Source: a virus
IMG/VR virus record: IMGVR_UViG_3300027850_000169
Location: 27,697 to 91,696 of that record
Length of the DNA: 64,000 nt
Strand: one strand, 5' to 3'
Below are positions 36,423-51,579 of this stretch, piece after piece. Numbering within the stretch: the stretch's first letter is position 1; each line of letters opens with the position of its first letter. Below the pieces are notes generated by a model. It did not search any database. It was not told the origin of the DNA and saw nothing but the letters and a program-made list of their open reading frames with translations. The position numbers were made by a program, and so were the translations under genes.

Positions 36423-36463
36423 AAATGATTATAATAGAGACTTCAATCTTTATTATAATCACC

Positions 36464-37990
36464 ATGTCGCTTAAATTCAAGCATCAAGCCATCGAACAAG
36501 ACCCAGACTTGCCATCTTATTTGAGTGAAGAATACTTGAATCAGTTGCCGTTCTGGGAATTCGTAGCTGATATGTACGAAGGCAGAACGGCATGGCGCAT
36601 GGTTGACCCAGTTCGGAATGGCTCAAGTATGGTTCTTGACATCAATATGGGCGCAAGATATTTGCCCAGAGAAGAGGCTGAACCTGAAGAAGAGTATGCG
36701 AAGCGCCTGTCTCGAAGTTACTTTGACAGAAAGTTTGCAGATGCTATCGACAGTAGTGCCGGATTTTTGTCTCGCTTTTTATTGAATGATGATGTACACG
36801 AAAGTATTGAAACCAGTATCGAGAACGTTGACCTCTGTGGTAACAGTCTGGAGGTATTCTTGAAGGCAGCAGATATAAAAAGTCTGCGAGATGACCACTG
36901 CTTTGTCATGGTTGATTTTCCAAAGCGAAACACCGAAATAACTGACGCTTATACTGAATCAAAATACAAAACTCGCCCCTATTTTTTATTAATTGATGCT
37001 AGAGATGTTATTAACTGGAATACTGAAATTAAGAACAATAAAATGATGGTGACTCAAGCCACAGTTCGGGAAACTTTTGTTAGAAAAACTGGACGATACG
37101 GTAGTGAAAAAGCGACTCGATATCGAGTGTTAACCCCAGGCGCTTATGAGGTATATGAAATAGAAGAAACGGCGACGCGGACTGATTTAATTTTAGTTGA
37201 AGAAGGTACAACCACGCTAGATTTTGTACCGTTGATTCCCTATTGCTTGCTACCGAGAGATTCAGACTTTTTTACTGGCAGACCACCATTGTATGACATT
37301 GCAGAACTAAATTTAAAATTATACCAAAAGCAGTCTGAAAAAGATGAAGCGATGCACAAAGCGAATATGGCTATTTTGCAAATTCAAGAAATAAGTCCTC
37401 CTAAAGTGAGGTCTGACAAAGACGAAACTCGTGTTGCAACAATAGGGCCGAACACTTGTCTGTGGAACGTGAACGCTTCATTTGTTGAACCATCGGGTTC
37501 AGCACTAGGACATACACAAGCTGACATTGAAAAGCTAGAGCTAACTATTGAGAAAAAGACACTTGCTTTTCAAAGTGGATACGCTGCACCCCCTACGGCA
37601 ACAGAGATTGCGCGTGATTCAGCTACGGCACAAGCTAGTCTAGGCTCAATGGCTAGAGCTAAAGAAAGCATTGTGCAGCAACTTTTTGATACTTGGTGCT
37701 TGTACATGAATGCACCGGGCAAAGGTGGAACTATTAAAGTCAATAAAAAGATTGTTGAAGTTGGAATGAGTGAAGCAAAAGCCGGATTGTTATTACAAAT
37801 CCGTGCCGCTGGTGAGATTACTCGTCAAACATTCTTAGAAGAGTTACGCAAAGGTGAAGTGTTGAGCAAAGACCTTGATGTTGATGCCGAAGTTGAAGAA
37901 CTAGAGAGTAAAATGAAGCAAGAGATGACAACACAATTAAGTAAGGCGACGGCATTAGCAAATGACAACCCCGCAGCAATTTATCAGTAG
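36464..37990 (+). CDS. Portal protein (DUF4055-like)
   Basis: YLPR...E....Y..RL, NVDL.G.SL, VDFP, RPY, INW, PPL.D.A.LN. Confidence 0.85.
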   Translation: MSLKFKHQAIEQDPDLPSYLSEEYLNQLPFWEFVADMYEGRTAWRMVDPVRNGSSMVLDINMGARYLPREEAEPEEEYAKRLSRSYFDRKFADAIDSSAGFLSRFLLNDDVHESIETSIENVDLCGNSLEVFLKAADIKSLRDDHCFVMVDFPKRNTEITDAYTESKYKTRPYFLLIDARDVINWNTEIKNNKMMVTQATVRETFVRKTGRYGSEKATRYRVLTPGAYEVYEIEETATRTDLILVEEGTTTLDFVPLIPYCLLPRDSDFFTGRPPLYDIAELNLKLYQKQSEKDEAMHKANMAILQIQEISPPKVRSDKDETRVATIGPNTCLWNVNASFVEPSGSALGHTQADIEKLELTIEKKTLAFQSGYAAPPTATEIARDSATAQASLGSMARAKESIVQQLFDTWCLYMNAPGKGGTIKVNKKIVEVGMSEAKAGLLLQIRAAGEITRQTFLEELRKGEVLSKDLDVDAEVEELESKMKQEMTTQLSKATALANDNPAAIYQ

Positions 37991-38870
37991 ATTTGAAACG
38001 GTCACTAGCCAGCTAGAAAATAGAGCCGCAAATATATTAAACGAAGCGCTTGACTCTGCGTACAAAGAGATAGAAGCAGAACTCAGAAAGAAGTATCCAT
38101 CGTTGGCTAATTCTGGGTCTTTGATGGTTACCAAAGACTCAATACTGCGACTAGAAAAATTGAAAAGTGTTTTGCAACTTTTGAACCCCCAGTCTTCTCA
38201 AGAGTTGCAGGCTGAATTCCAAAAAATCTTACAATTAACAAATGAGGCTGGGGACACTTTAGCCACTCAGATAACACGAGCTAGAGCGGGTGAAGACTGG
38301 CAAGTTAAGCCAGGTGAAATCCCTATCGAAGCGGCTGGATTTGCGGCTGCTAATATGGTCGCACATCTCAATCGCTACTCTTCTGAGTTTGCTAGTCGGG
38401 CAACTGTTTTAGTTACTCAGGGCGTAATCCAAGGCTGGGGAACCGCCAAAGTTGCAAGCTTGCTTAGAAACGAACTTGGCATGAAAAAAGGTAGGGCCGA
38501 AGTAATCGCTCGAACAGAAGTGCTTAGCAGTTTTAATCAAGCCGTGGTAGCATCCTACGACAATTCAGGCATTGAGTATGTCCAAGTGATTGCCACAGGC
38601 GACTTGCGAACTTGCGGAACCTGTGTTGCTCGAAATTTAAAGGCATACCGAATTCGAGATGTCTCTGTACCGTTTCATCCGCGCTGTCGGTGTACCTTGA
38701 TGCCGTGGAGTCCCGATTGGAGTCAAAATGACTCGTGGATTAAGCGATTCAATGAAACTGTTCGGAATGAATTTACCGGAACGCTAAATAACGGGTTGAG
38801 CGCATTTGAGAAGATGAACGGCATTACCAGTCCGCCTGTTGCTGCATGGACTCCATCGGAATTAGACTAA
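37962..38870 (+). CDS. Minor head protein (Mu gpF / SPP1 gp7 family)
   Basis: RAE.IARTE, D.RTC..C, P.HPRCRC. Confidence 0.9.
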   Translation: MTTPQQFISRFETVTSQLENRAANILNEALDSAYKEIEAELRKKYPSLANSGSLMVTKDSILRLEKLKSVLQLLNPQSSQELQAEFQKILQLTNEAGDTLATQITRARAGEDWQVKPGEIPIEAAGFAAANMVAHLNRYSSEFASRATVLVTQGVIQGWGTAKVASLLRNELGMKKGRAEVIARTEVLSSFNQAVVASYDNSGIEYVQVIATGDLRTCGTCVARNLKAYRIRDVSVPFHPRCRCTLMPWSPDWSQNDSWIKRFNETVRNEFTGTLNNGLSAFEKMNGITSPPVAAWTPSELD

Positions 38871-39816: not shown

Positions 39817-40581
39817 ATGGCGATTACCTTTTACGACTACAAGACAAATCCGACAATTAAAATTCGCAATAAATTGGTAGAAGAAAATATCAATTTAGCT
39901 CGTTTTGTCGCACATAAAATTGCGTCAAGAGTGCCTATTCCTTACGAAGAATTAGAGCAAATTGCATCAATGGGATTGATTTTAGCGGTTGAGCGGTACG
40001 ACCCTACAATAGGTGCTAAATTTAGCACCTTTGCAATCCCCTTGATTACGGGACGGCTATTGAACTTCGTTAGAGACAGTTCTAATGTCATTCAATTGCC
40101 TCGAAAGTATCATGAAATACTTCAAAAAGGGAAGAGAATTCTCAGAGAATTAAGCGTATCTTTGGGGCGGACTCCCACTAAAAACGAGTTCTTTCAATCA
40201 CTTTTAAACCTTGGAGTTACTCAATCTGAGTTTTGCAAGGCTAAAAAAGCATATCAAGATTGTAGATACATATCCTGCTATGATACCGCAATCAGTGGTG
40301 TCTCAGATACGCTTAACTCGGAGGTTGAGCCAACTTATTCTTATAAATCGCGGGAATTGCAAGCTAACGAAACTCACATAGTAAATAGTAGGGAAAAGAA
40401 TGAGTTAATAGGTAAAATAAACAATATATTAAAAGTGGATATTGCCGATTTGAGCTATCAAGAAGCCGTAATCCGCTTGTACTTCTTTGAATATCTACCC
40501 GTCAATAAAATAATTGAATTGTTAGACCTGTCTAAAGTACAAGTATTTGAAGCTATAAAAGAGTGGTGTCGGTCTGTCTAG
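39817..40581 (+). CDS. Phage sigma70-family factor (SigF/FliA-like group 3)
   Basis: RNKLVE.N..LA, EL.Q....GLI.AVERYDP..G.KFSTFA, LGR.PT, region 4 HTH. Confidence 0.9.
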   Translation: MAITFYDYKTNPTIKIRNKLVEENINLARFVAHKIASRVPIPYEELEQIASMGLILAVERYDPTIGAKFSTFAIPLITGRLLNFVRDSSNVIQLPRKYHEILQKGKRILRELSVSLGRTPTKNEFFQSLLNLGVTQSEFCKAKKAYQDCRYISCYDTAISGVSDTLNSEVEPTYSYKSRELQANETHIVNSREKNELIGKINNILKVDIADLSYQEAVIRLYFFEYLPVNKIIELLDLSKVQVFEAIKEWCRSV

Positions 40582-40940
40582 GCTTTTAGTATCTGCTTGA
40601 ACGAATTGATATCTTTGGCTTTAAGAATACTTTTTGATTTTTCTTTTTTGTTCTGAATATTCGCCCAAGTTCTATGTTCTAACTCGCCCAAATCAAGAGA
40701 ATCATTGCTCAAGGTAGATTCTAATACACGTTTAAACTGGTCAACCTCAGATTCATTAAGCAATATATTAGCCAGTCGCCACGCCTTGCGAATAGTCTGC
40801 GGGTCTTCATTTCCAAAGTCCGCTAAGCTTGTGAAATCATTAGTGAAACTAGCTTTTAAAAATCGAATAGCCAATATTCCCGATTCCATTGTTTTAACTC
40901 TTGTAATATCCAATGCCTGTTTGATATCGAATAGGTTCAT
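40578..40940 (-). CDS. Hypothetical protein
   Basis: Overlaps the terminase 3' end. Confidence 0.5.
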   Translation of the reverse strand: MNLFDIKQALDITRVKTMESGILAIRFLKASFTNDFTSLADFGNEDPQTIRKAWRLANILLNESEVDQFKRVLESTLSNDSLDLGELEHRTWANIQNKKEKSKSILKAKDINSFKQILKA

Positions 40941-42303
40941 TTAGACAGAAATGTGCACCAGAAGCAGCATCGGTAATATCTTTGACTTTCCCATCAGGAA
41001 AATCGTGCATCCAGTTTAAAAATCTGTCATTCCACGAGGCTCGTAGAAGCTTGACTTTCCCCCTAAAAGTGTCAGTAGCCAAAGGCTTTGCACGTTTCAC
41101 CTTGTCTCCGAGTGGTCGGACACCTTCTGCATCAATGTCTGAGTGTAATCCCATTAGTAATTGTTTGATATGCTCCTCGTCGCGTTTTCCACTACTTCCC
41201 CCTTCCAACTCCCAACGGACTTTGCACCACAATCCGTCCTGTTGTGCGGTTGCTACCATTAGCTCGTCGCCGCCAACCGGCCCAACTTGTTCGGCGATAA
41301 CATCTACCACGTAATAAATATCGTCAACTAATCGCATTTTGACTCCGGCGGTATAGCAGGCGTTAGAACGAACGGCCGCCTCTGTTGCCGCCAAATCCCA
41401 AAACCTAACTTCTTCACCGCTGTAATCTAAACGCGGAACATCATCAACAATTTCAAACCAAGCGCGGTTAAATAGCTTACCCGACTCTTCCTTAACTTTC
41501 CAATTTCCGTAAAGTAGTCGAGCTTGGTCTACCGGATGCAAAGCCTGAAGATTTGCCAGATACTCCGGGTTCTGCTGCATCAAAATTTGATTGTCTTCGA
41601 TTTTAGCAGGGATGAAGGTAAAGCTTTTTGCCATTAAGCCAGGATATCTATTCTCAAGTTCATCTCTTGAGCTACCCCAAACAATCTCACCACTCTGCCG
41701 AACAAAGTAGCGAACGACTCCACTATGCTCTGTAATTGGGAACCCTTCGTCATCTAGCCACCAATCAATAAACCCTGCAATCCAAGAGTCGGCATCAGGG
41801 TTAGTTGTACAGCGAACATAGGGGCGGATTCCACAAGTTGAGCGGTTGCGACTGAACAGGTAAAAAATAGCCGACTCACTAAAATGGGTTAATTCATCTA
41901 TTAGCAAAAGCGGAATTTGACTACCTTGATACTTGTACTTAGCTTGCTCGTTTCCCAAATGTCCAAAGCCTATCTTTGCGCCACTAGAAAACAACCAATC
42001 AAGTGTACTTTTTTTGGGAGTCGCACCTAGCAGCGGATAGATATCTTCTGATGTATCCCAAAGCGCTCCTTCTTCGGTTATCTGAGCAAAACTTTGCCTG
42101 AACAAAACGGCTCCAAACTTTGGATTTCCTATATGACGCAAAGGTTCTAGCATTAAAGCGTAGCTTTTTCCTCCACCTGCCGCGCCACCGTAAATACAAA
42201 AATCTGCCGAGGTAGTTAAGAACGCTTCCTGTTGCCCTGACTGTGGCTTGAGTATTAAATCTGATGACTTGACGGGTAATTTCTTGTATTGTTTTACGGG
42301 CAT
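40894..42303 (-). CDS. terL: Terminase large subunit
   Basis: YGGAAGGGKS, LIDELTHF, TTNP, RFWDLAA, DK..RA, FP...D..DA. Confidence 0.95.
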   Translation of the reverse strand: MPVKQYKKLPVKSSDLILKPQSGQQEAFLTTSADFCIYGGAAGGGKSYALMLEPLRHIGNPKFGAVLFRQSFAQITEEGALWDTSEDIYPLLGATPKKSTLDWLFSSGAKIGFGHLGNEQAKYKYQGSQIPLLLIDELTHFSESAIFYLFSRNRSTCGIRPYVRCTTNPDADSWIAGFIDWWLDDEGFPITEHSGVVRYFVRQSGEIVWGSSRDELENRYPGLMAKSFTFIPAKIEDNQILMQQNPEYLANLQALHPVDQARLLYGNWKVKEESGKLFNRAWFEIVDDVPRLDYSGEEVRFWDLAATEAAVRSNACYTAGVKMRLVDDIYYVVDVIAEQVGPVGGDELMVATAQQDGLWCKVRWELEGGSSGKRDEEHIKQLLMGLHSDIDAEGVRPLGDKVKRAKPLATDTFRGKVKLLRASWNDRFLNWMHDFPDGKVKDITDAASGAHFCLNEPIRYQTGIGYYKS

Positions 42304-42311
42304 AGTCAGAC

Positions 42312-42749
42312 TTAATCTCGATTGTTTTCAGGAAGGTAAATAGACACAGTTTGTGGCCTATCTAAATTAATCTGTTGAGGAGCTTCTTCAGTCCTTTCTC
42401 TCATCCCGCAGCGAGTCTTCTCATACCAAATTATTGCCGTCATGTCACGGTCAACGGTTGCTTTTTCAAAAAGCACTTTAGCAACAGTTATCCTTGCTCT
42501 GGCTAAACCTTTGTCATAAGCTTCTTTAATAGTTGGGTTCCATTTTTTATTGCGGTATAAGGTTGATTCGGACACACCCAAAATCGCTGCCATATGCCCG
42601 ACAGGTAATCCGTAACCAGCCATTACGCCAATTGAGCGTAACTCTGCTTCTGTAAAGACTTTCTTGGGGCGGCCGCGAGAAGTTTCGGTTGGCTGCTCCT
42701 CCCCTGATTCTAAAGTTGATTCATCGTCAAAATCTACAGTCTCGGTCAT
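42312..42749 (-). CDS. terS: Terminase small subunit (HTH)
   Basis: GRP, MA.ILGVSESTLYR, TAIIW..KTR; upstream of terL. Confidence 0.8.
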   Translation of the reverse strand: MTETVDFDDESTLESGEEQPTETSRGRPKKVFTEAELRSIGVMAGYGLPVGHMAAILGVSESTLYRNKKWNPTIKEAYDKGLARARITVAKVLFEKATVDRDMTAIIWYEKTRCGMRERTEEAPQQINLDRPQTVSIYLPENNRD

Positions 42750-42924
42750 GGGGTTGCAATTGTTGATACTAAAATTAATGTCAACAATTAAAATATTATT
42801 TAGTTGTAGCTGTTTTCTATTGGTTTTCAAGTCTAATGCCGTTAAGAGTTAAAGGTTTTACTGGGTAAGCTGTCAACTCTCAACAATGACTATATTGTTA
42901 CAGGTCTATAGGGCACGGTTAACA

Positions 42925-43653
42925 ATGTTATTTAACGAGAAAACAGAAGAGAATTTACAGTGTGGGTTTAGTGGTACTCCTAAAGGTGGCTTTGGTGGCG
43001 GTGGAGGTAGTGCCGCAAGTAGCAAAAAAGCTAGTCCAGCGGCAGAATCCACTGGAACTCACGATGACATCCCCAATGTTCAAGAAGATGCACAGGGAGC
43101 GCGTCAAAAACTACAAGAGTTGACTGGACTTTCTGAGTCTGATGTCAGAGAAACAATGAAAGCCGTCATGGGTTATACGCAAGAAAGAAGTGCAGATATT
43201 AGAGACTTTCAATATGGCAGCACTAAAGATATGAGTCCCAAAGATATTGAAAGAGCCAAGCGTGAAGTTGAGGTACTCAACAAGTATATTGATAAAATGC
43301 CAAAATTCAAAGGCGACATATACAGAGGTAAAGATTTTGAAAGCCCAGAGAAGGCAGAAGCATTTTTAAACAAGCTGAAAACGTCCGACTATCAATTACC
43401 TGCCTTGTCTAGCTTTTCTAGCACGCCAAAAATCGCCGACAACTTTGCACGGTCACGAAGTAAAATGGGGATGAAAGGGAGAGTACCTATAGTTTTTGTT
43501 GTCGAAGGCAACAAAAGTGGTGCAAGTATTAGAAGCCTCTCAGAAAAGACGAAAGAAGACGAGGTTTTAGTGCCTAAAAATGTTAGATACAGGTTAAAAA
43601 AGGCGGCGTACCAAAAAGATGGAATTTGGTACGTTCCTTTAGCAGAATCCTAG
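42925..43653 (+). CDS. ADP-ribosyltransferase (R-S-E, VIP2/Alt-like) with N-terminal TEENLQCGFSGTPKGG leader
   Basis: IYRG, LSSFS, EDEVL. Confidence 0.85.
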   Translation: MLFNEKTEENLQCGFSGTPKGGFGGGGGSAASSKKASPAAESTGTHDDIPNVQEDAQGARQKLQELTGLSESDVRETMKAVMGYTQERSADIRDFQYGSTKDMSPKDIERAKREVEVLNKYIDKMPKFKGDIYRGKDFESPEKAEAFLNKLKTSDYQLPALSSFSSTPKIADNFARSRSKMGMKGRVPIVFVVEGNKSGASIRSLSEKTKEDEVLVPKNVRYRLKKAAYQKDGIWYVPLAES

Positions 43654-43656
43654 CAA

Positions 43657-43785
43657 CTATTTTTTCTTAGGTACTAGGTTGTCACGTCCTGGTTCGTCAA
43701 CAAATCGAGCAGCTCTTTTCTGGGCTTCTGTTTCACTTGTCTTTGGTTTCTTTCTCGCTGGCTTTGCTATTTTTTTAGTCGTCAT
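43657..43785 (-). CDS. 42-aa basic peptide convergent on the ART gene
   Basis: Manual translation MTTKKIAKPARKKPKTSETEAQKRAARFVDEPGRDNLVPKKK. Confidence 0.5.
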   Translation of the reverse strand: MTTKKIAKPARKKPKTSETEAQKRAARFVDEPGRDNLVPKKK

Positions 43786-43863
43786 ATTCTAAATTCCAAT
43801 GCGGTACAATTATTATCACCTAAATTAGTGATAGTATAGTTAATACAAACAAATTTAACAGCT

Positions 43864-45123
43864 ATGACTTTAGACGTTTATTGGGGAGGATTGTTTTATA
43901 ATTCGTGCGCGCCACTAGAGCTAAGTTTAAACTGGTGTACTCATAACTGCGCGTACTGTTTTGCAAATCTGAATCTACCAAACCGCAAAGTAGAAGCCAA
44001 ACAAATACTTAACTTTTTAACGAGTTACGAAAAACGCACAAGCTACGCGGCGTGGTTGTTACAGCGGGGTTATCCCGTAGTATTCTCCAGTCACGTCGAC
44101 CCATTTGCTGTTGCAAATGAAGATTTGAGCCTGAGCATTATTGAACTATTTGGACTCAAGGGAATTCCATTTATATTGCAAACCAAAGGCGGTCGGCGTG
44201 TTTATGACGCAATTGACATGATAGATACCCCGATAGTTTGGTATGTCAGTATTTCCACCTTGAACGAAGATATAGCTAAAAAAGTTGAACCGGGCGCGCC
44301 ACTAATTCACGAGCGACTGCGGATGATTGAAAAAGTTGTTGCCAAAGGTCATCAGGTGTGCGTAGGAATCAACCCTTGCGTCCCTGATTGGTTGCCCAAT
44401 CCTAGAGAAATGACAGATAGACTAAAAGATATAGGGGTATGGGGGGTAAACGTTAATCCAATGCACTTGAGTAGCACTCAGCTTAAAAATATGCCCGCCC
44501 GTGGGAAAACTGCGCTAGGAAAAGAAGTATTGCACCAAGCTCTTTACAGGAGTAAACACCCTGAAGTAACACAGCACTGTTTGACTACAAAAGACGCTGT
44601 AGTTCAATCGGGAATGGAAATAATAAGTAGTGGCCAAGGGACTCCCTCTCATTTTTTCAAACCTTATAAAGACTTGTACCCCATCAGGTTTCCACTGTAC
44701 CAAGATTTTGTTAATTTCTGCCACGAGACAAAAAAGGATGGAGACGCTATATATTATGAAGAATACTTGAGTTATTTTCTCCCTCAGCTTCCTGATATTG
44801 AACTCAAAACGTTAAATCAGCACGTTTACGCGACAACTTTAGGGGTAAGCTTGCACGGTAAAGGCCCCGACATCTATCAAAGTATTACAAACTACGAAAC
44901 GTTGCTTGAGAAAATTTGGCAGCACTATGAGATAAGTTTCTGTCCGGTACGTTTTGACTGTTTTTCTTGGGCAGCAGACTGGGAAATACAAGCAAATGGG
45001 GAAGAGGGATGGACTCAATATCTAGATGATAACGATAGACCTATATTGATTTTCAAGCCTAATTTCACCGAGGCTGAATGGTTTACTCAGTGGAGTCCAA
45101 CAGGTGACTCTAGTATTGTCTAG
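43864..45123 (+). CDS. Radical SAM enzyme (spore-photoproduct-lyase-like)
   Basis: CTHNCAYC (CxxxCxxC), DPF, LQTK, EPGAP....RL. Confidence 0.9.
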   Translation: MTLDVYWGGLFYNSCAPLELSLNWCTHNCAYCFANLNLPNRKVEAKQILNFLTSYEKRTSYAAWLLQRGYPVVFSSHVDPFAVANEDLSLSIIELFGLKGIPFILQTKGGRRVYDAIDMIDTPIVWYVSISTLNEDIAKKVEPGAPLIHERLRMIEKVVAKGHQVCVGINPCVPDWLPNPREMTDRLKDIGVWGVNVNPMHLSSTQLKNMPARGKTALGKEVLHQALYRSKHPEVTQHCLTTKDAVVQSGMEIISSGQGTPSHFFKPYKDLYPIRFPLYQDFVNFCHETKKDGDAIYYEEYLSYFLPQLPDIELKTLNQHVYATTLGVSLHGKGPDIYQSITNYETLLEKIWQHYEISFCPVRFDCFSWAADWEIQANGEEGWTQYLDDNDRPILIFKPNFTEAEWFTQWSPTGDSSIV

Positions 45124-45139
45124 AGGCAGGAGTAAGTCA

Positions 45140-45694
45140 ATGTTAAAATTCGACGAGCAAACAGAAGAAAATTTACAATGCGGGTTTAGTGGCACTCCTA
45201 AAGGCGGTTGGAGCGGCGGTGGTGGAGGCGGTGCGGCAAGTAGCAAAAAAGCTAGTGCCACCGCCGCAAAAGCTATTCAAAACAATCTAGTGCCCGCTAC
45301 ATCTCGTGGGGAACAGTTGCGAGCGAAGCTTGGTAATAATGCTGCGCTTGATAAACTTAATTCAAGGACTAGAGTTGCGGCAGGTTCTACGTCTTTAGAG
45401 CGAAATCTGGCCGCAAACGCTAACAAAAGAAACGTTGCAAAGACTTTATCTAGAGTGCGTGCAGTAGGTGCTGTACTTCGTGGAGAAATTGAAAGTAAAG
45501 CTACACAAAAGTCTATAGATAGACAAGCTAGGAAAAGAGGAACAGATTTAAACGTTAGTAGAAAGACGTTGTACGACCCTACTGGAAAAGATACGAATAG
45601 TTCATTTAAGAATGTTGTCACTGGCAGGTCTACAAAAGGGGGGGATTCCGAACAAAGACGAGCGGCTCAATCATCCAAAAGAAACAAAAGGTGA
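45140..45694 (+). CDS. Basic (Lys/Arg-rich) protein with the same N-terminal leader as the ART
   Basis: AGGAG RBS; MLKFDEQTEENLQCGFSGTPKGG... Confidence 0.8.
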   Translation: MLKFDEQTEENLQCGFSGTPKGGWSGGGGGGAASSKKASATAAKAIQNNLVPATSRGEQLRAKLGNNAALDKLNSRTRVAAGSTSLERNLAANANKRNVAKTLSRVRAVGAVLRGEIESKATQKSIDRQARKRGTDLNVSRKTLYDPTGKDTNSSFKNVVTGRSTKGGDSEQRRAAQSSKRNKR

Positions 45695-45758
45695 AAAGCG
45701 GTAAAAGCAAAAATATCCACGAAAAAGTAGAATTCTAGTAGTAAAAAACCTTTCACCA

Positions 45759-46418
45759 ATGAATCAAGAAACACTAGAAAATCCCATGCAATCCGTCGTA
45801 TTAGTTCCGCTAAGTGCGTTACACGAAGACCCCGCAAATGCCCGCCAAGGTAACGTTGAATCAATTGTTGATTCACTTAAAGAATTTGGCCAACATCGTC
45901 CTTGTGTAGTTCAAAAAAGTACCGGGCGAATCATTGCTGGCAATCATTTGTACAAAGCTGCGAAAGAGCTTGGATGGGAAAACATTGGAGTTTTTTACGT
46001 TGATGATGATGACAAAACAGCACTCCGACGCGGTATAGCTGATAATGCCACAGGCGACCAAGCGAGTTGGGATATTGAAACTTTAGCGGCGTTGATTCAA
46101 GAAGCTGGGGACAATATTCCTGGTGTTGACGATTTTTTACTTGATGAAATTGACGCGCTACTTGCAGACCCGGCAGAACCGGAGTTACCAGAGTCGAAAC
46201 CAGTCTATCCAATCGTTCCAAGGATGGCGGAGAGGTACGATTGCATAGTCATTGCTTCAACGAATGAGATGGATTACGCTTTCTTAAAAACCGTACTAAA
46301 ACTTGAAACCAACAAAAGTTTTAAAGGTAATCACGTTGGGCAAACACACATTATCAAAGCTGAAAAGTTTTGCCAATTGTGGAGAGCTAATAGTAAGCAG
46401 TTAAAAGGTGACGTTTAA
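45759..46418 (+). CDS. ParB/Srx-like N-terminal domain protein
   Basis: P.NAR, SL.EFGQ..P.VV, IIAGNH...AA..LG, IADN. Confidence 0.85.
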   Translation: MNQETLENPMQSVVLVPLSALHEDPANARQGNVESIVDSLKEFGQHRPCVVQKSTGRIIAGNHLYKAAKELGWENIGVFYVDDDDKTALRRGIADNATGDQASWDIETLAALIQEAGDNIPGVDDFLLDEIDALLADPAEPELPESKPVYPIVPRMAERYDCIVIASTNEMDYAFLKTVLKLETNKSFKGNHVGQTHIIKAEKFCQLWRANSKQLKGDV

Positions 46419-47104
46419 TGAGCCTTAAAATCATTATTCCCAGTAAAAACAAAGCATCGAGCGTTATCGCTCACAAGCTAGTTGAAGGTGGAACTTTGTG
46501 CGTTCCAGAATCTCAAGTTAGTGACTACCAAAGGTATAATTCAAACGTAGAAATCATTGGGTATCCTGACAGTATTGAGACTTTCGCTACTCGGAATAAA
46601 TGGATATTGGATAAATTTAATCACGTTTTTTTTATAAGTGACAATATTATCAATTGTTTAAAGCTGTGTGGAGTTAAGAGTGAATCAACAAAAGTAGAGC
46701 CAGAAAAGGTAACAGAGTTAATTTACAATGCTGATGATATCGCAACTCAACTAGGTACATATTTATTCGGATTTAGTGCTAATTGTGTTGCCGCCAGCTA
46801 CCACGGATTAAAGCCTTTTCGCAGCAGTGGAAGTATTGATGGCTATGCCTTTGGAGTGCGCTCAGGCTCGAAACTATTTTGGAACGACAACATCACTGAA
46901 GACTTGAATCAAATATGGCTGTCAGGGTTAAATGCACACTTTCATCGTTCTACATTTGTTGACGAGCGCTTTGGATTTAAGAAAGCTCAAACTTACGCGC
47001 ATATAGAAGGTAAAAAAACTAACGACTCTGAATTGCTCAAACATTATTTCGGTAACGCCGTCACTCAAAAGAAAGATAGGTTAGAGTTTGATTCACGATT
47101 TTAA
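46418..47104 (+). CDS. GT-A glycosyltransferase-like (TET/JBP-associated, GREB1-like)
   Basis: IIIPS, VPESQ...Y, RN.WILD, acidic motif degenerate (ISDN), ED. Confidence 0.65.
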   Translation: MSLKIIIPSKNKASSVIAHKLVEGGTLCVPESQVSDYQRYNSNVEIIGYPDSIETFATRNKWILDKFNHVFFISDNIINCLKLCGVKSESTKVEPEKVTELIYNADDIATQLGTYLFGFSANCVAASYHGLKPFRSSGSIDGYAFGVRSGSKLFWNDNITEDLNQIWLSGLNAHFHRSTFVDERFGFKKAQTYAHIEGKKTNDSELLKHYFGNAVTQKKDRLEFDSRF

Positions 47105-50952: not shown

Positions 50953-51579
50953 TTAATACTTGAAACCGCATTCTGGACAAGTGCGTTTTTTTTGTGTAGA
51001 TTTGTCTTCATCTGTCAGGTCGTTATCTTTTGAGATGTTATCTTCACTCTTCATATTAGCAATATCTATCAAGAAATCAATATCATCCCCGTCAAATCCA
51101 ATCATCAACTCCTGAGCGTCTGCCAACTCTTGTAACTCATCCAGTAGGTCGTCATTGTACATCCGAGAGATATCAAGCGCGGTGAAGTCACCGCCAACCA
51201 TAGTCAGGGCGTTATCGTCAAGAGCATAGGCGCGAGCCTTGACTTCCGACTCAGAATCATTCCCGAACAACACCGGAACACACCAGTTACCGCTATCATC
51301 AATCGCAATCCCTTTCGGTGGATTCTCTCCATTGTGCTGCATCCATAATAATGCCTCAACCCGTCCGTTTCCGGCAACTACGCCACCAGCGCCACCGTTT
51401 AGCTTAGATTCCCACTTAATCGCCGATTTAAATCCATACTTTCGTAATGAGTCGGCAATTTTGCCAAGGTCGTGTTTTTTGAGATTTTTCTCAAATAATG
51501 TAGCTTCCGAGATTGGAACGTATTGAAAGGAAAGAAGTGAATCCATAAAGTGCTGATTGACTGTTGCAGATATTGTCAC
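50953..51579 (-). CDS. Second ParB/Srx-like protein with C-terminal CPECG
   Basis: N.KKHD, SL..YGF, VAGNGR.EAL, Y.L.DN. Confidence 0.75.
   Translation of the reverse strand: MTISATVNQHFMDSLLSFQYVPISEATLFEKNLKKHDLGKIADSLRKYGFKSAIKWESKLNGGAGGVVAGNGRVEALLWMQHNGENPPKGIAIDDSGNWCVPVLFGNDSESEVKARAYALDDNALTMVGGDFTALDISRMYNDDLLDELQELADAQELMIGFDGDDIDFLIDIANMKSEDNISKDNDLTDEDKSTQKKRTCPECGFKY

Follow-up and report, generated by a model that had tools for sequence, protein, structure and literature searches.

In phage T4, the ADP-ribosyltransferase (ART) Alt and the basic internal proteins IPI-III carry common short N-terminal peptides known as capsid targeting sequences (CTS), which are portable to foreign cargo (PMC9026906; PMC9958956). 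The T4 CTS, 10-19 amino acids (aa) in length, binds the scaffolding core and is cut by gp21, the prohead protease; a radical S-adenosylmethionine (rSAM) enzyme is not involved. T4 Alt is also the prototype of the phage 'polyvalent proteins', a presumably packaged and injected group in which ART, the ParB-type nuclease and MuF are hub domains; head-delivered cargo types include T4 Alt itself, MuF-fused effectors and the ParB of the P1 DdrB type (PMC5512222). Here, we analyze a locus in a 64,000-nucleotide stretch of viral DNA, hereafter the window, which comprises bases 27697-91696 of the 91.7-kb IMG/VR virus record IMGVR_UViG_3300027850_000169, a record rated complete. In this locus, an ART and a Lys/Arg-rich protein with unrelated bodies begin with nearly the same peptide, referred to below as the tag, and the gene for an rSAM enzyme lies between them. 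Comparison of related loci shows that tag and enzyme are linked in the genomes in both directions, across phyla and head types, and we propose, at what we judge to be even chances, that the tag is the enzyme's recognition handle, and probably its modification handle, on effector-type proteins.

The locus resembles several described systems in part, and literature searches returned no description of this module. As in T4, a short N-terminal peptide is common to an ART and small basic proteins; unlike the CTS, the tag of the window has a Gly linker after it and is tied genomically to an rSAM gene across unrelated head types. With the maturases of peptides that are made by the ribosome and modified after translation (RiPPs), such as the streptide enzymes SuiB/StrB, SkfB and the sactipeptide enzymes, the module has in common an enzyme gene beside one to several genes with a conserved N-terminus and a variable rest, stand-alone partners of 32-45 aa in other lineages, and the presence of SkfB and SuiB among the fold matches of the enzyme. 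It differs from RiPP systems in the lack of a SPASM/twitch domain and of a clear RiPP recognition element, in clients that include enzymes of 200-750 aa, and in its place within the packaging module of a phage, together with a ParB-like gene; moreover, unlike a RiPP leader, the conserved part here is likely to be a site that stays on the protein. The MuF-fused polymorphic toxins and polyvalent proteins are alike in their effectors, as the body of the window's ART matches the ART part of the MuF-fused 'minor head protein' families PHROG 16619 (E 1e-24) and PHROG 595. Among the cargo, ART and ParB belong to the hub domains of polyvalent proteins, and the NUDIX protein found in a relative agrees with this effector-type character. 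Unlike the MuF-fused toxins, the effector here is a separate gene with a short tag, and the phage's own MuF protein, encoded 4 kb away, is not fused to an effector.

Two DNA-directed systems also bear on the locus. Spore photoproduct lyase (SPL) is the top structural match to the core of the rSAM enzyme, and the SPL-like rSAM protein gp53 of phage M6 isomerizes glycine-appended thymine in DNA (PMC8989533); unlike either of them, the window's enzyme has an extra C-terminal domain of 215 aa, and the family scan, at E 0.01 or better, gave it no match to an SPL model. ParB-like proteins activate phage thymine dioxygenases on double-stranded DNA, and the ParB-like gene of such 5mYOX/TET-JBP loci has a base-chemistry enzyme as its neighbor, often together with a glycosyltransferase and next to the terminase (PMC13229309). 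The window resembles these loci in the ParB-like gene and the TAGT-like gene (a possible TET-associated glycosyltransferase) that follow the rSAM gene, and differs from them in having an rSAM enzyme, no Tet_JBP match at E 0.1 or better, and tagged proteins that have no counterpart there.

Two-way linkage of the tag and the radical SAM enzyme

A first-pass annotation of the window, made from the DNA letters, had reported near-identical N-termini of about 37 residues on two otherwise unrelated proteins, and this description is borne out. The N-termini of the ART and the Lys/Arg-rich protein align over 37-39 residues with 84% identity, and the bodies of the two proteins give no alignment. The tag is made up of an identical 16-aa core (TEENLQCGFSGTPKGG), a Gly run and the residues AASSKKAS. 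Within the 48 nucleotides (nt) of the core there are 6 nucleotide differences, all synonymous, and the single difference in the AASSKKAS segment is synonymous as well. With about 21% of sites synonymous, and assuming neutrality, seven synonymous differences out of seven would arise by chance with a probability of ~2e-5, which argues that the tag peptide is under selection and that the identity does not merely reflect recent DNA copying; the earlier view that the peptide rather than the DNA is conserved is thus upheld. Scanning the window in six frames, and searching the 91.7-kb record in full, gave exactly two copies of the tag. A profile search of 1.84 billion representative proteins yielded five real matches, all of them small basic proteins of 128-184 aa. 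Across the close relatives, the invariant part of the tag comprises (T)ENLQCG, the Gly run and KKAS-like residues. The stretch LQCGFSG was also considered as a glycyl-radical site, by its likeness to the PROSITE glycine-radical signature R-[IVT]-[CSA]-G-Y, and this candidate was rejected, as the aromatic residue after Gly is lost in loci L003 and L005 and the pattern is absent from other clades.

The close relatives show that the cargo has been swapped while the rSAM gene was kept. In L005, a 76-kb contig whose rSAM protein is 72% identical to that of the window, TerS, two tagged ARTs, the rSAM gene, a tagged basic protein, a ParB gene and the TAGT-like gene are found, whereas L003, with an rSAM protein 79% identical, has no ART and carries two tagged basic proteins after the rSAM gene. 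L006 has the rSAM gene, one tagged basic protein, a ParB gene and the TAGT-like gene. Orthologues of the Lys/Arg-rich protein lie directly 3' of the rSAM gene in all three relatives, and the TAGT-like gene after ParB is kept in L005 and L006. The first tagged basic protein of L003 (L003:4763-5209) also contains a partial internal duplication of the tag (..ETEENLQF followed by DEETEENLQCG), which looks like slippage or unequal recombination between tag copies.

The search for more distant relatives returned at least 209 rSAM homologues of about 400 aa, and 79 viral and 18 genome loci were fetched; the distant homologues used in the comparison are 25-45% identical to the window's enzyme. The hosts of the genome contigs span Cyanobacteria, Chloroflexota, Acidobacteria, Bacteroidota and Proteobacteria and include Drouetiella, Oculatella, Chloroflexia, Blastocatellia, Chitinophaga, beta- and gammaproteobacteria, and Synergistetes. 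Culturable lysogens among the loci are Oculatella sp. LEGE 06141 (L107) and Chitinophaga skermanii DSM 23857 (L099). A recognizable partner gene is present in at least 55 of 77 non-redundant loci, with the partner calls in high-GC loci made by inspection of open reading frames (ORFs). The partner typically starts at the rSAM stop codon, within ~5 nt of it or overlapping the 3' end of the rSAM gene, and is either a basic peptide of 32-45 aa or a larger protein (ART, NUDIX or ParB-like) with a clade-specific N-terminal motif.

The stand-alone peptides of 32-45 aa form a family that is conserved end to end (MAS-x-GG-x-W ... G-x-R-F ... GESRQ-x-A) and lie directly after the enzyme in at least 10 loci, for example L117:1423-1536, L116:623-748 on the minus strand, L043:5121-5216 and L084:7203-7313; gene callers would probably overlook them. 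Further stand-alone partners are Gly/Arg-rich, 45-80 aa long and begin with MAG. In L011 and L025, the long cargo bears tags that resemble the mini-peptide in its entirety, as if a copy had been fused to it.

Several clade-specific motifs occur in more than one copy. MASKGGSWKSG is found three times in L010, which is identical in sequence to L107 of Oculatella sp. LEGE 06141; MAASGGHWK four times in L009; MASSGGHW three times in L025; MASxAVRxK three times in L013; and an AVAGSNGTAKG motif three times in L097. NG(I/V)QYYGG is present in six contigs, usually as two copies that flank the enzyme. The largest set is that of IMGVR_UViG_3300029288_000527 (L015/L089/L090), where seven genes on one contig begin with MAAAGG(S/A)WKGG (L090:13-6531, L089:7914-8276); four of them stand in tandem after the rSAM gene and three lie up to ~12 kb away, so that tagged genes need not adjoin the enzyme. 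In the nearest cyanobacterial clades (L092, L008), N-x-C-Q-D-G precedes a Gly run, and this motif appears to be a diverged version of the tag seen in the window.

Each tag class has a characteristic residue beside Gly, namely C (ENLQCG, NxCQDG), W (GGxW), YY (QYYGG) or F (GGSF). One radical-reactive residue next to Gly in each class is suggestive of radical chemistry on the tag, rather than evidence for it. The presence of Trp, Tyr-Tyr or Phe elsewhere means that Cys is not general, which weighs against the Cys-specific part of the earlier proposal.

The larger cargo is of few kinds. Tagged ARTs occur in four lineages (the window's clade, L010, L025 and L011), a tagged NUDIX protein in L011 and tagged ParB_N proteins in L040 and L041; the remaining tagged proteins are small and basic or without a family match. 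By domain type, these clients look like virion-delivered proteins. The variable cargo sets of the close relatives, together with distant equivalents that head ART, NUDIX and ParB-like proteins, support the earlier idea of a portable tag. In L040 and L041 (L040:7222-7965, L041:7202-7966), the protein with the tag-like start (MASQGWKKNKKG and similar) is itself ParB-like (ParB_N E 3e-11 in L040), so tag and ParB partner are fused there; in L042 and L078 of the same clade, the ParB-like tagged gene lies upstream of the rSAM gene on the opposite strand.

The linkage was also followed in reverse, by scanning back-translated tag patterns against IMG/VR DNA. An rSAM gene is adjacent in all contigs with ENLQCG (4/4: the window, L003 and the metagenome loci L005 and L006), with MAxxGGxWKxG (3/3), with QYYGGNDP (6/6) and with the mini-peptide (5/5), that is, in 18/18 tag-bearing contigs with adequate flank; as many of these contigs are kin, the independent events are fewer. 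L121 was left out of this count, as its mini-peptide lies 193 nt from the contig end; the pattern match in L004 was due to chance, being in the wrong frame of a high-GC phage, and those in L085 and L088 were likewise discarded as chance. The co-occurrence of the tag with this rSAM clade, which the first-pass annotation proposed as a check, holds in every informative contig. The same tag class is found with unrelated head and packaging sets, including three Terminase_6 clusters and a lambda gpA terminase with a lambda-type portal, which argues that no single terminase or portal type accompanies the tag as constantly as the enzyme does. Since the linkage runs both ways, is often translationally coupled and persists across head types, the enzyme appears to be the constant partner of the tag.

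Peptide or DNA as the substrate of the enzyme

The window's enzyme has a Pfam Radical_SAM match above cut-off, and the three cysteines of its CX3CX2C motif (C25, C29 and C32) are invariant in 31 homologues. Its AlphaFold2 (AF2) model has a pLDDT of 92, and the top Foldseek match of this model in the PDB is SPL (E 3e-6, TM 0.43-0.53, ~285 columns, 14-16% identity), with PFL-AE, SkfB and RlmN nearly tied and SuiB close behind. The NCBIfam scan gave no match to the SPL family model at E 0.01 or better; its only entries at that level were partial matches to the uncharacterized families Rv2578c (with its intein variant) and PA0069, all well short of the cut-off (42.9 bits vs 430). The name 'SPL-like' given to the enzyme earlier fits only in a loose sense: SPL is the top fold match, but the TM score is modest, the lead over PFL-AE, SkfB and RlmN is slight and the family model does not support it. 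A PDB sequence search with the enzyme gave nothing significant. None of the isolated phages in the INPHARED collection carries the enzyme; the one match there is weak and partial (E 4e-6, 27.6% identity across 37% of the query) and falls on the record of an uncultured 'Bacteriophage sp.' Long versions of the enzyme fused to other parts (735-2095 aa) did not turn up, which is weak evidence. The C-terminal 215 aa fall outside the SPL alignment and form a domain of helices and a four-stranded sheet without a Cys-rich motif; folded alone, it reaches a pLDDT of 89 and gives weak matches (Z 4.5 or less), winged-helix domains foremost. In these models, the winged-helix-like matches are compatible with peptide or DNA binding and may mean nothing.

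In the reading that we favor, the basic unit is the rSAM gene followed by a gene for a short basic Gly-rich partner. This partner would stand alone in many lineages, as the peptide of 32-45 aa, and elsewhere its N-terminal part or the whole peptide would head larger proteins, namely ADP-ribosyltransferases, a NUDIX protein, ParB-like proteins and small basic proteins of DNA-binding type. The tag would accordingly correspond to the partner peptide of the enzyme, copied and fused to other proteins, and the phage of the window would have two clients, the ART and the Lys/Arg-rich protein. The enzyme would bind the tag, possibly via its C-terminal winged-helix-like domain, and act by radical chemistry on the reactive residue that is conserved beside Gly, which is Cys here and Trp, Tyr-Tyr or Phe elsewhere. 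Maturation of the tag may be needed for the loading of the clients into the virion or for their action from it. The tag itself, the selection on its peptide, the exchange of cargo and the linkage to the enzyme are shown by the comparison, and we infer enzyme binding to the tag, its modification and delivery by the virion.

Several observations weigh against a peptide-directed enzyme. A ParB-like gene is co-oriented with the rSAM gene and lies within 400 nt of it, mostly directly upstream, at 48 of 85 loci, which makes it nearly as constant a neighbor of the enzyme as the tag, and the cassette usually stands beside TerS and TerL; given that ParB-like proteins are activators of base-modifying enzymes (PMC13229309), this neighbor points towards DNA as the substrate. 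The nearest fold is that of a DNA repair enzyme, Pfam finds no SPASM/twitch domain, and the weak winged-helix matches do not amount to a clear RiPP recognition element. About 22 of the 77 loci have no recognizable tagged partner, so that the enzyme may act without a tagged protein, or partners were missed. Many of the loci are also closely related, and the counts overstate the number of independent events. The tag type changes 25 times on the rSAM tree as compared with 43.7 times after shuffling, a clustering that we do not count as evidence of co-evolution, since relatives have labels in common in any case. Thioether-forming peptide maturases have a SPASM/twitch domain, and its lack here further tells against a thioether link of the kind that had been brought up for the tag.

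The strongest of the alternatives, which we regard as rather unlikely and still a serious competitor, takes these points together. In it, the ParB-like protein and the rSAM enzyme, here with the TAGT-like protein, modify or repair DNA before packaging, and the tag is a separate capsid-targeting signal like the T4 CTS, which binds a component of the head interior and loads internal proteins and the ART. The adjacency of tag and enzyme would then reflect a region from ParB to the terminase that is favored by DNA-modification genes and virion-accessory genes. A DNA-directed role for the enzyme is plausible because of the ParB link, the established ParB-like activators of phage DNA base oxidases, in whose loci glycosyltransferases and terminases co-occur (PMC13229309), the top fold match to SPL, and the SPL-like M6 gp53, which tailors a DNA base modification (PMC8989533). 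Also in favor of this alternative are the T4 precedent of a common N-terminus on Alt and the basic internal proteins, the loci without a tagged partner, and the TAGT-like gene that follows ParB; without a Tet/JBP enzyme, another enzyme would need to prepare the base. The window's genome gave no Tet_JBP match at E 0.1 or better, in a search whose control matched weakly in one genome only, and no match to a C5 DNA methyltransferase. It is of note in its own right that the TAGT-like gene is present although the genome lacks both of these matches; L005 and L045, unlike the window's genome, carry a C5 methyltransferase nearby.

What this alternative leaves unexplained is the tie between tag and enzyme, namely the adjacent rSAM gene in every informative tag-bearing contig, the coupling of the partner gene to the rSAM stop codon, and the pairing of tag class and enzyme across unrelated portal and terminase types. 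In addition, the TAGT match is below the Pfam cut-off, and no similarity to M6 gp53 was seen in the isolated-phage collection, assuming that M6 is in it. A processed CTS would also call for a protease, and none of the prohead protease families Peptidase_S78, S14 (CLP_protease) and Peptidase_S49 was found in the 91.7-kb record, the S77 search being one in which the control gave no match. With no recognizable prohead protease, a T4-style cleaved targeting peptide is unsupported here, and the absence likewise weighs against the cleavage step of the first-pass annotation.

The tag-handle reading could also be joined with the DNA context. The ParB-like protein, the SPL-related rSAM enzyme and the tag might form one machine at the packaging locus, in which the Cys, Trp or Tyr of the tag, or the neighboring Gly, is joined by radical chemistry to DNA or to a head component, so that whatever protein bears the tag of roughly 35 aa would be brought into the capsid and delivered with the genome; we hold this combined scheme to be improbable. 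Its narrower form, that the enzyme, with help from ParB on double-stranded DNA, makes a covalent bond between tag and phage DNA so that the cargo is tethered to the genome and enters the host with it, is more doubtful still. Chemically, a thymine-methyl radical might add to the Cys, Trp or Tyr of the tag, or the reaction might take place at the tag glycine, and M6 gp53 offers a precedent in that it abstracts hydrogen from a thymine-attached glycine and makes a thymidyl-DNA radical (PMC8989533). Covalent attachment to DNA is the sole model that uses all three conserved partners at the packaging locus, and one radical-reactive residue with Gly at its side is kept in every tag class. Given the size of the portal channel, however, folded proteins of 20-80 kDa bound to DNA should not get through it during packaging. 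Of the known amino-acid-appending pathway, no enzyme forming 5-hydroxymethyluracil (5-hmU), kinase or amino-acid transferase was seen in the window.

Least probable, by a little, is that the tag is a propeptide cut after the conserved Gln (..ENLQ|CG.., ..NGIQ|YY..) to leave a Gly-rich basic N-terminus, with an acidic leader that only masks the basic body until assembly and an rSAM gene that is unrelated: two clades in which the motif is not at residue 1 do have an acidic or Asn-rich pre-sequence ending in Gln before C or Y, and the T4 CTS peptides are cleaved after targeting, but the genome has no S78, ClpP-type or S49 protease, the head module is of the scaffold-plus-MuF type, the motif begins at Met1 in most clades and leaves nothing to remove, the order is C-Q and not Q-C in L092 and L008, and the linkage to the enzyme is left unexplained.

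Gene layout and variation at the locus

The features of the locus are collected in Table 1, and the ORF coordinates of the first-pass annotation agree with the ORF list. The TerS-like and TerL genes are on the opposite strand and divergent from the block of tagged and rSAM genes, as had been described. Of the other neighbors named at that time, the ParB-like gene is confirmed by a match above cut-off, whereas the glycosyltransferase-like gene has a match that is only weak and falls short of the cut-off; its membership in the module is uncertain. The head module is of a type with a scaffold protein, a major head protein and MuF, and the scaffold and major head protein genes are on the minus strand. 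The probable start codons of the ART and Lys/Arg-rich genes are ATG at 42925 and ATG at 45140; the latter gene starts 17 nt past the rSAM stop codon, with AGGAG 7 nt upstream of its start. The translation of the ART shows YRG, SFSST and EDE motifs (R-S-ExE-type).

Table 1. Features of the tagged-protein locus and its surroundings, in window coordinates.
Feature	Position	Strand	Evidence
ADP-ribosyltransferase (ART) with N-terminal tag	42925..43653; tag 42925-43035	+	Pfam ADPrib_exo_Tox, E 8e-7, 29 bits (cut-off 23.4)
Radical SAM (rSAM) enzyme, 419 aa	43864..45123	+	Pfam Radical_SAM, 35.8 bits; CX3CX2C at residues 25-32
Lys/Arg-rich 184-aa protein with N-terminal tag	45140..45694; tag 45140-45256	+	No Pfam, PHROG or NCBIfam match
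ParB-like protein, ParB N-terminal domain	45759..46418	+	Pfam ParB_N, 26.8 bits (cut-off 26.3); PHROG 620, E 4e-30
Possible glycosyltransferase, TAGT-like	46418..47104	+	Pfam TAGT, E 9e-5, 23 bits (cut-off 27.5)
Terminase large subunit (TerL)	40894-42303	-	Terminase_6N, E 7.5e-29
TerS-like helix-turn-helix (HTH) protein	42312-42830	-	Weak HTH matches (Pfam)
Portal	36425-37990	+	PHROG 145, E 2e-82
MuF-like minor head protein, without effector domain	37962-38870	+	PHROG 115 and other MuF families
Sigma-70-type factor	39817-40581	+	PHROG 351, E 4e-24
Second ParB-like protein, C-terminal CxxC zinc-ribbon-like motif	50953-51579	-	

Some further features of the locus and its relatives stand apart from the argument above. 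The sigma-70-type gene between the head and terminase genes is kept in L003, L005 and L045. The start of the ParB-like protein that follows the Lys/Arg-rich gene (45759-45800, MNQETLENPMQS) holds a faint echo of the TEENLQC of the tag; it is kept in L005 and L006 and could be due to chance. The homologue in L005 of the second ParB-like protein adjoins a C5 DNA methyltransferase. In L044, L045 (6106-7173) and L052, a deletion fuses rSAM residues 1-111 to the C-terminal part of ParB; these same relatives have lost the tagged genes, carry the TAGT-like gene in two pieces, and lack, between the portal gene and the gene that follows, both MuF and the next ORF of 168 aa.

Possible significance for phage effector delivery

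The locus has the look of a module, so far undescribed, for the marking of phage proteins of effector type. If the enzyme acts on the tag, phages would have a second, mechanistically different route to earmark ADP-ribosyltransferases, NUDIX hydrolases, ParB-type nucleases and DNA-coating peptides, in which the mark is set by a radical SAM enzyme of a DNA-enzyme-like branch and not by a protease-processed targeting peptide. The tag would then be a defined portable handle of roughly 35 aa, and a large uncharacterized radical SAM clade (COG1533-like) would gain a new class of substrates. If the enzyme instead acts on DNA together with ParB, the locus would be one more uncharacterized ParB-rSAM pair at a phage packaging locus, and the tag would be a candidate capsid-targeting signal outside the T4-like phages. 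Were ParB, the rSAM enzyme and the tag to work as a joint machine, it would amount to a radical-based, enzyme-installed form of cargo loading for phage effectors.

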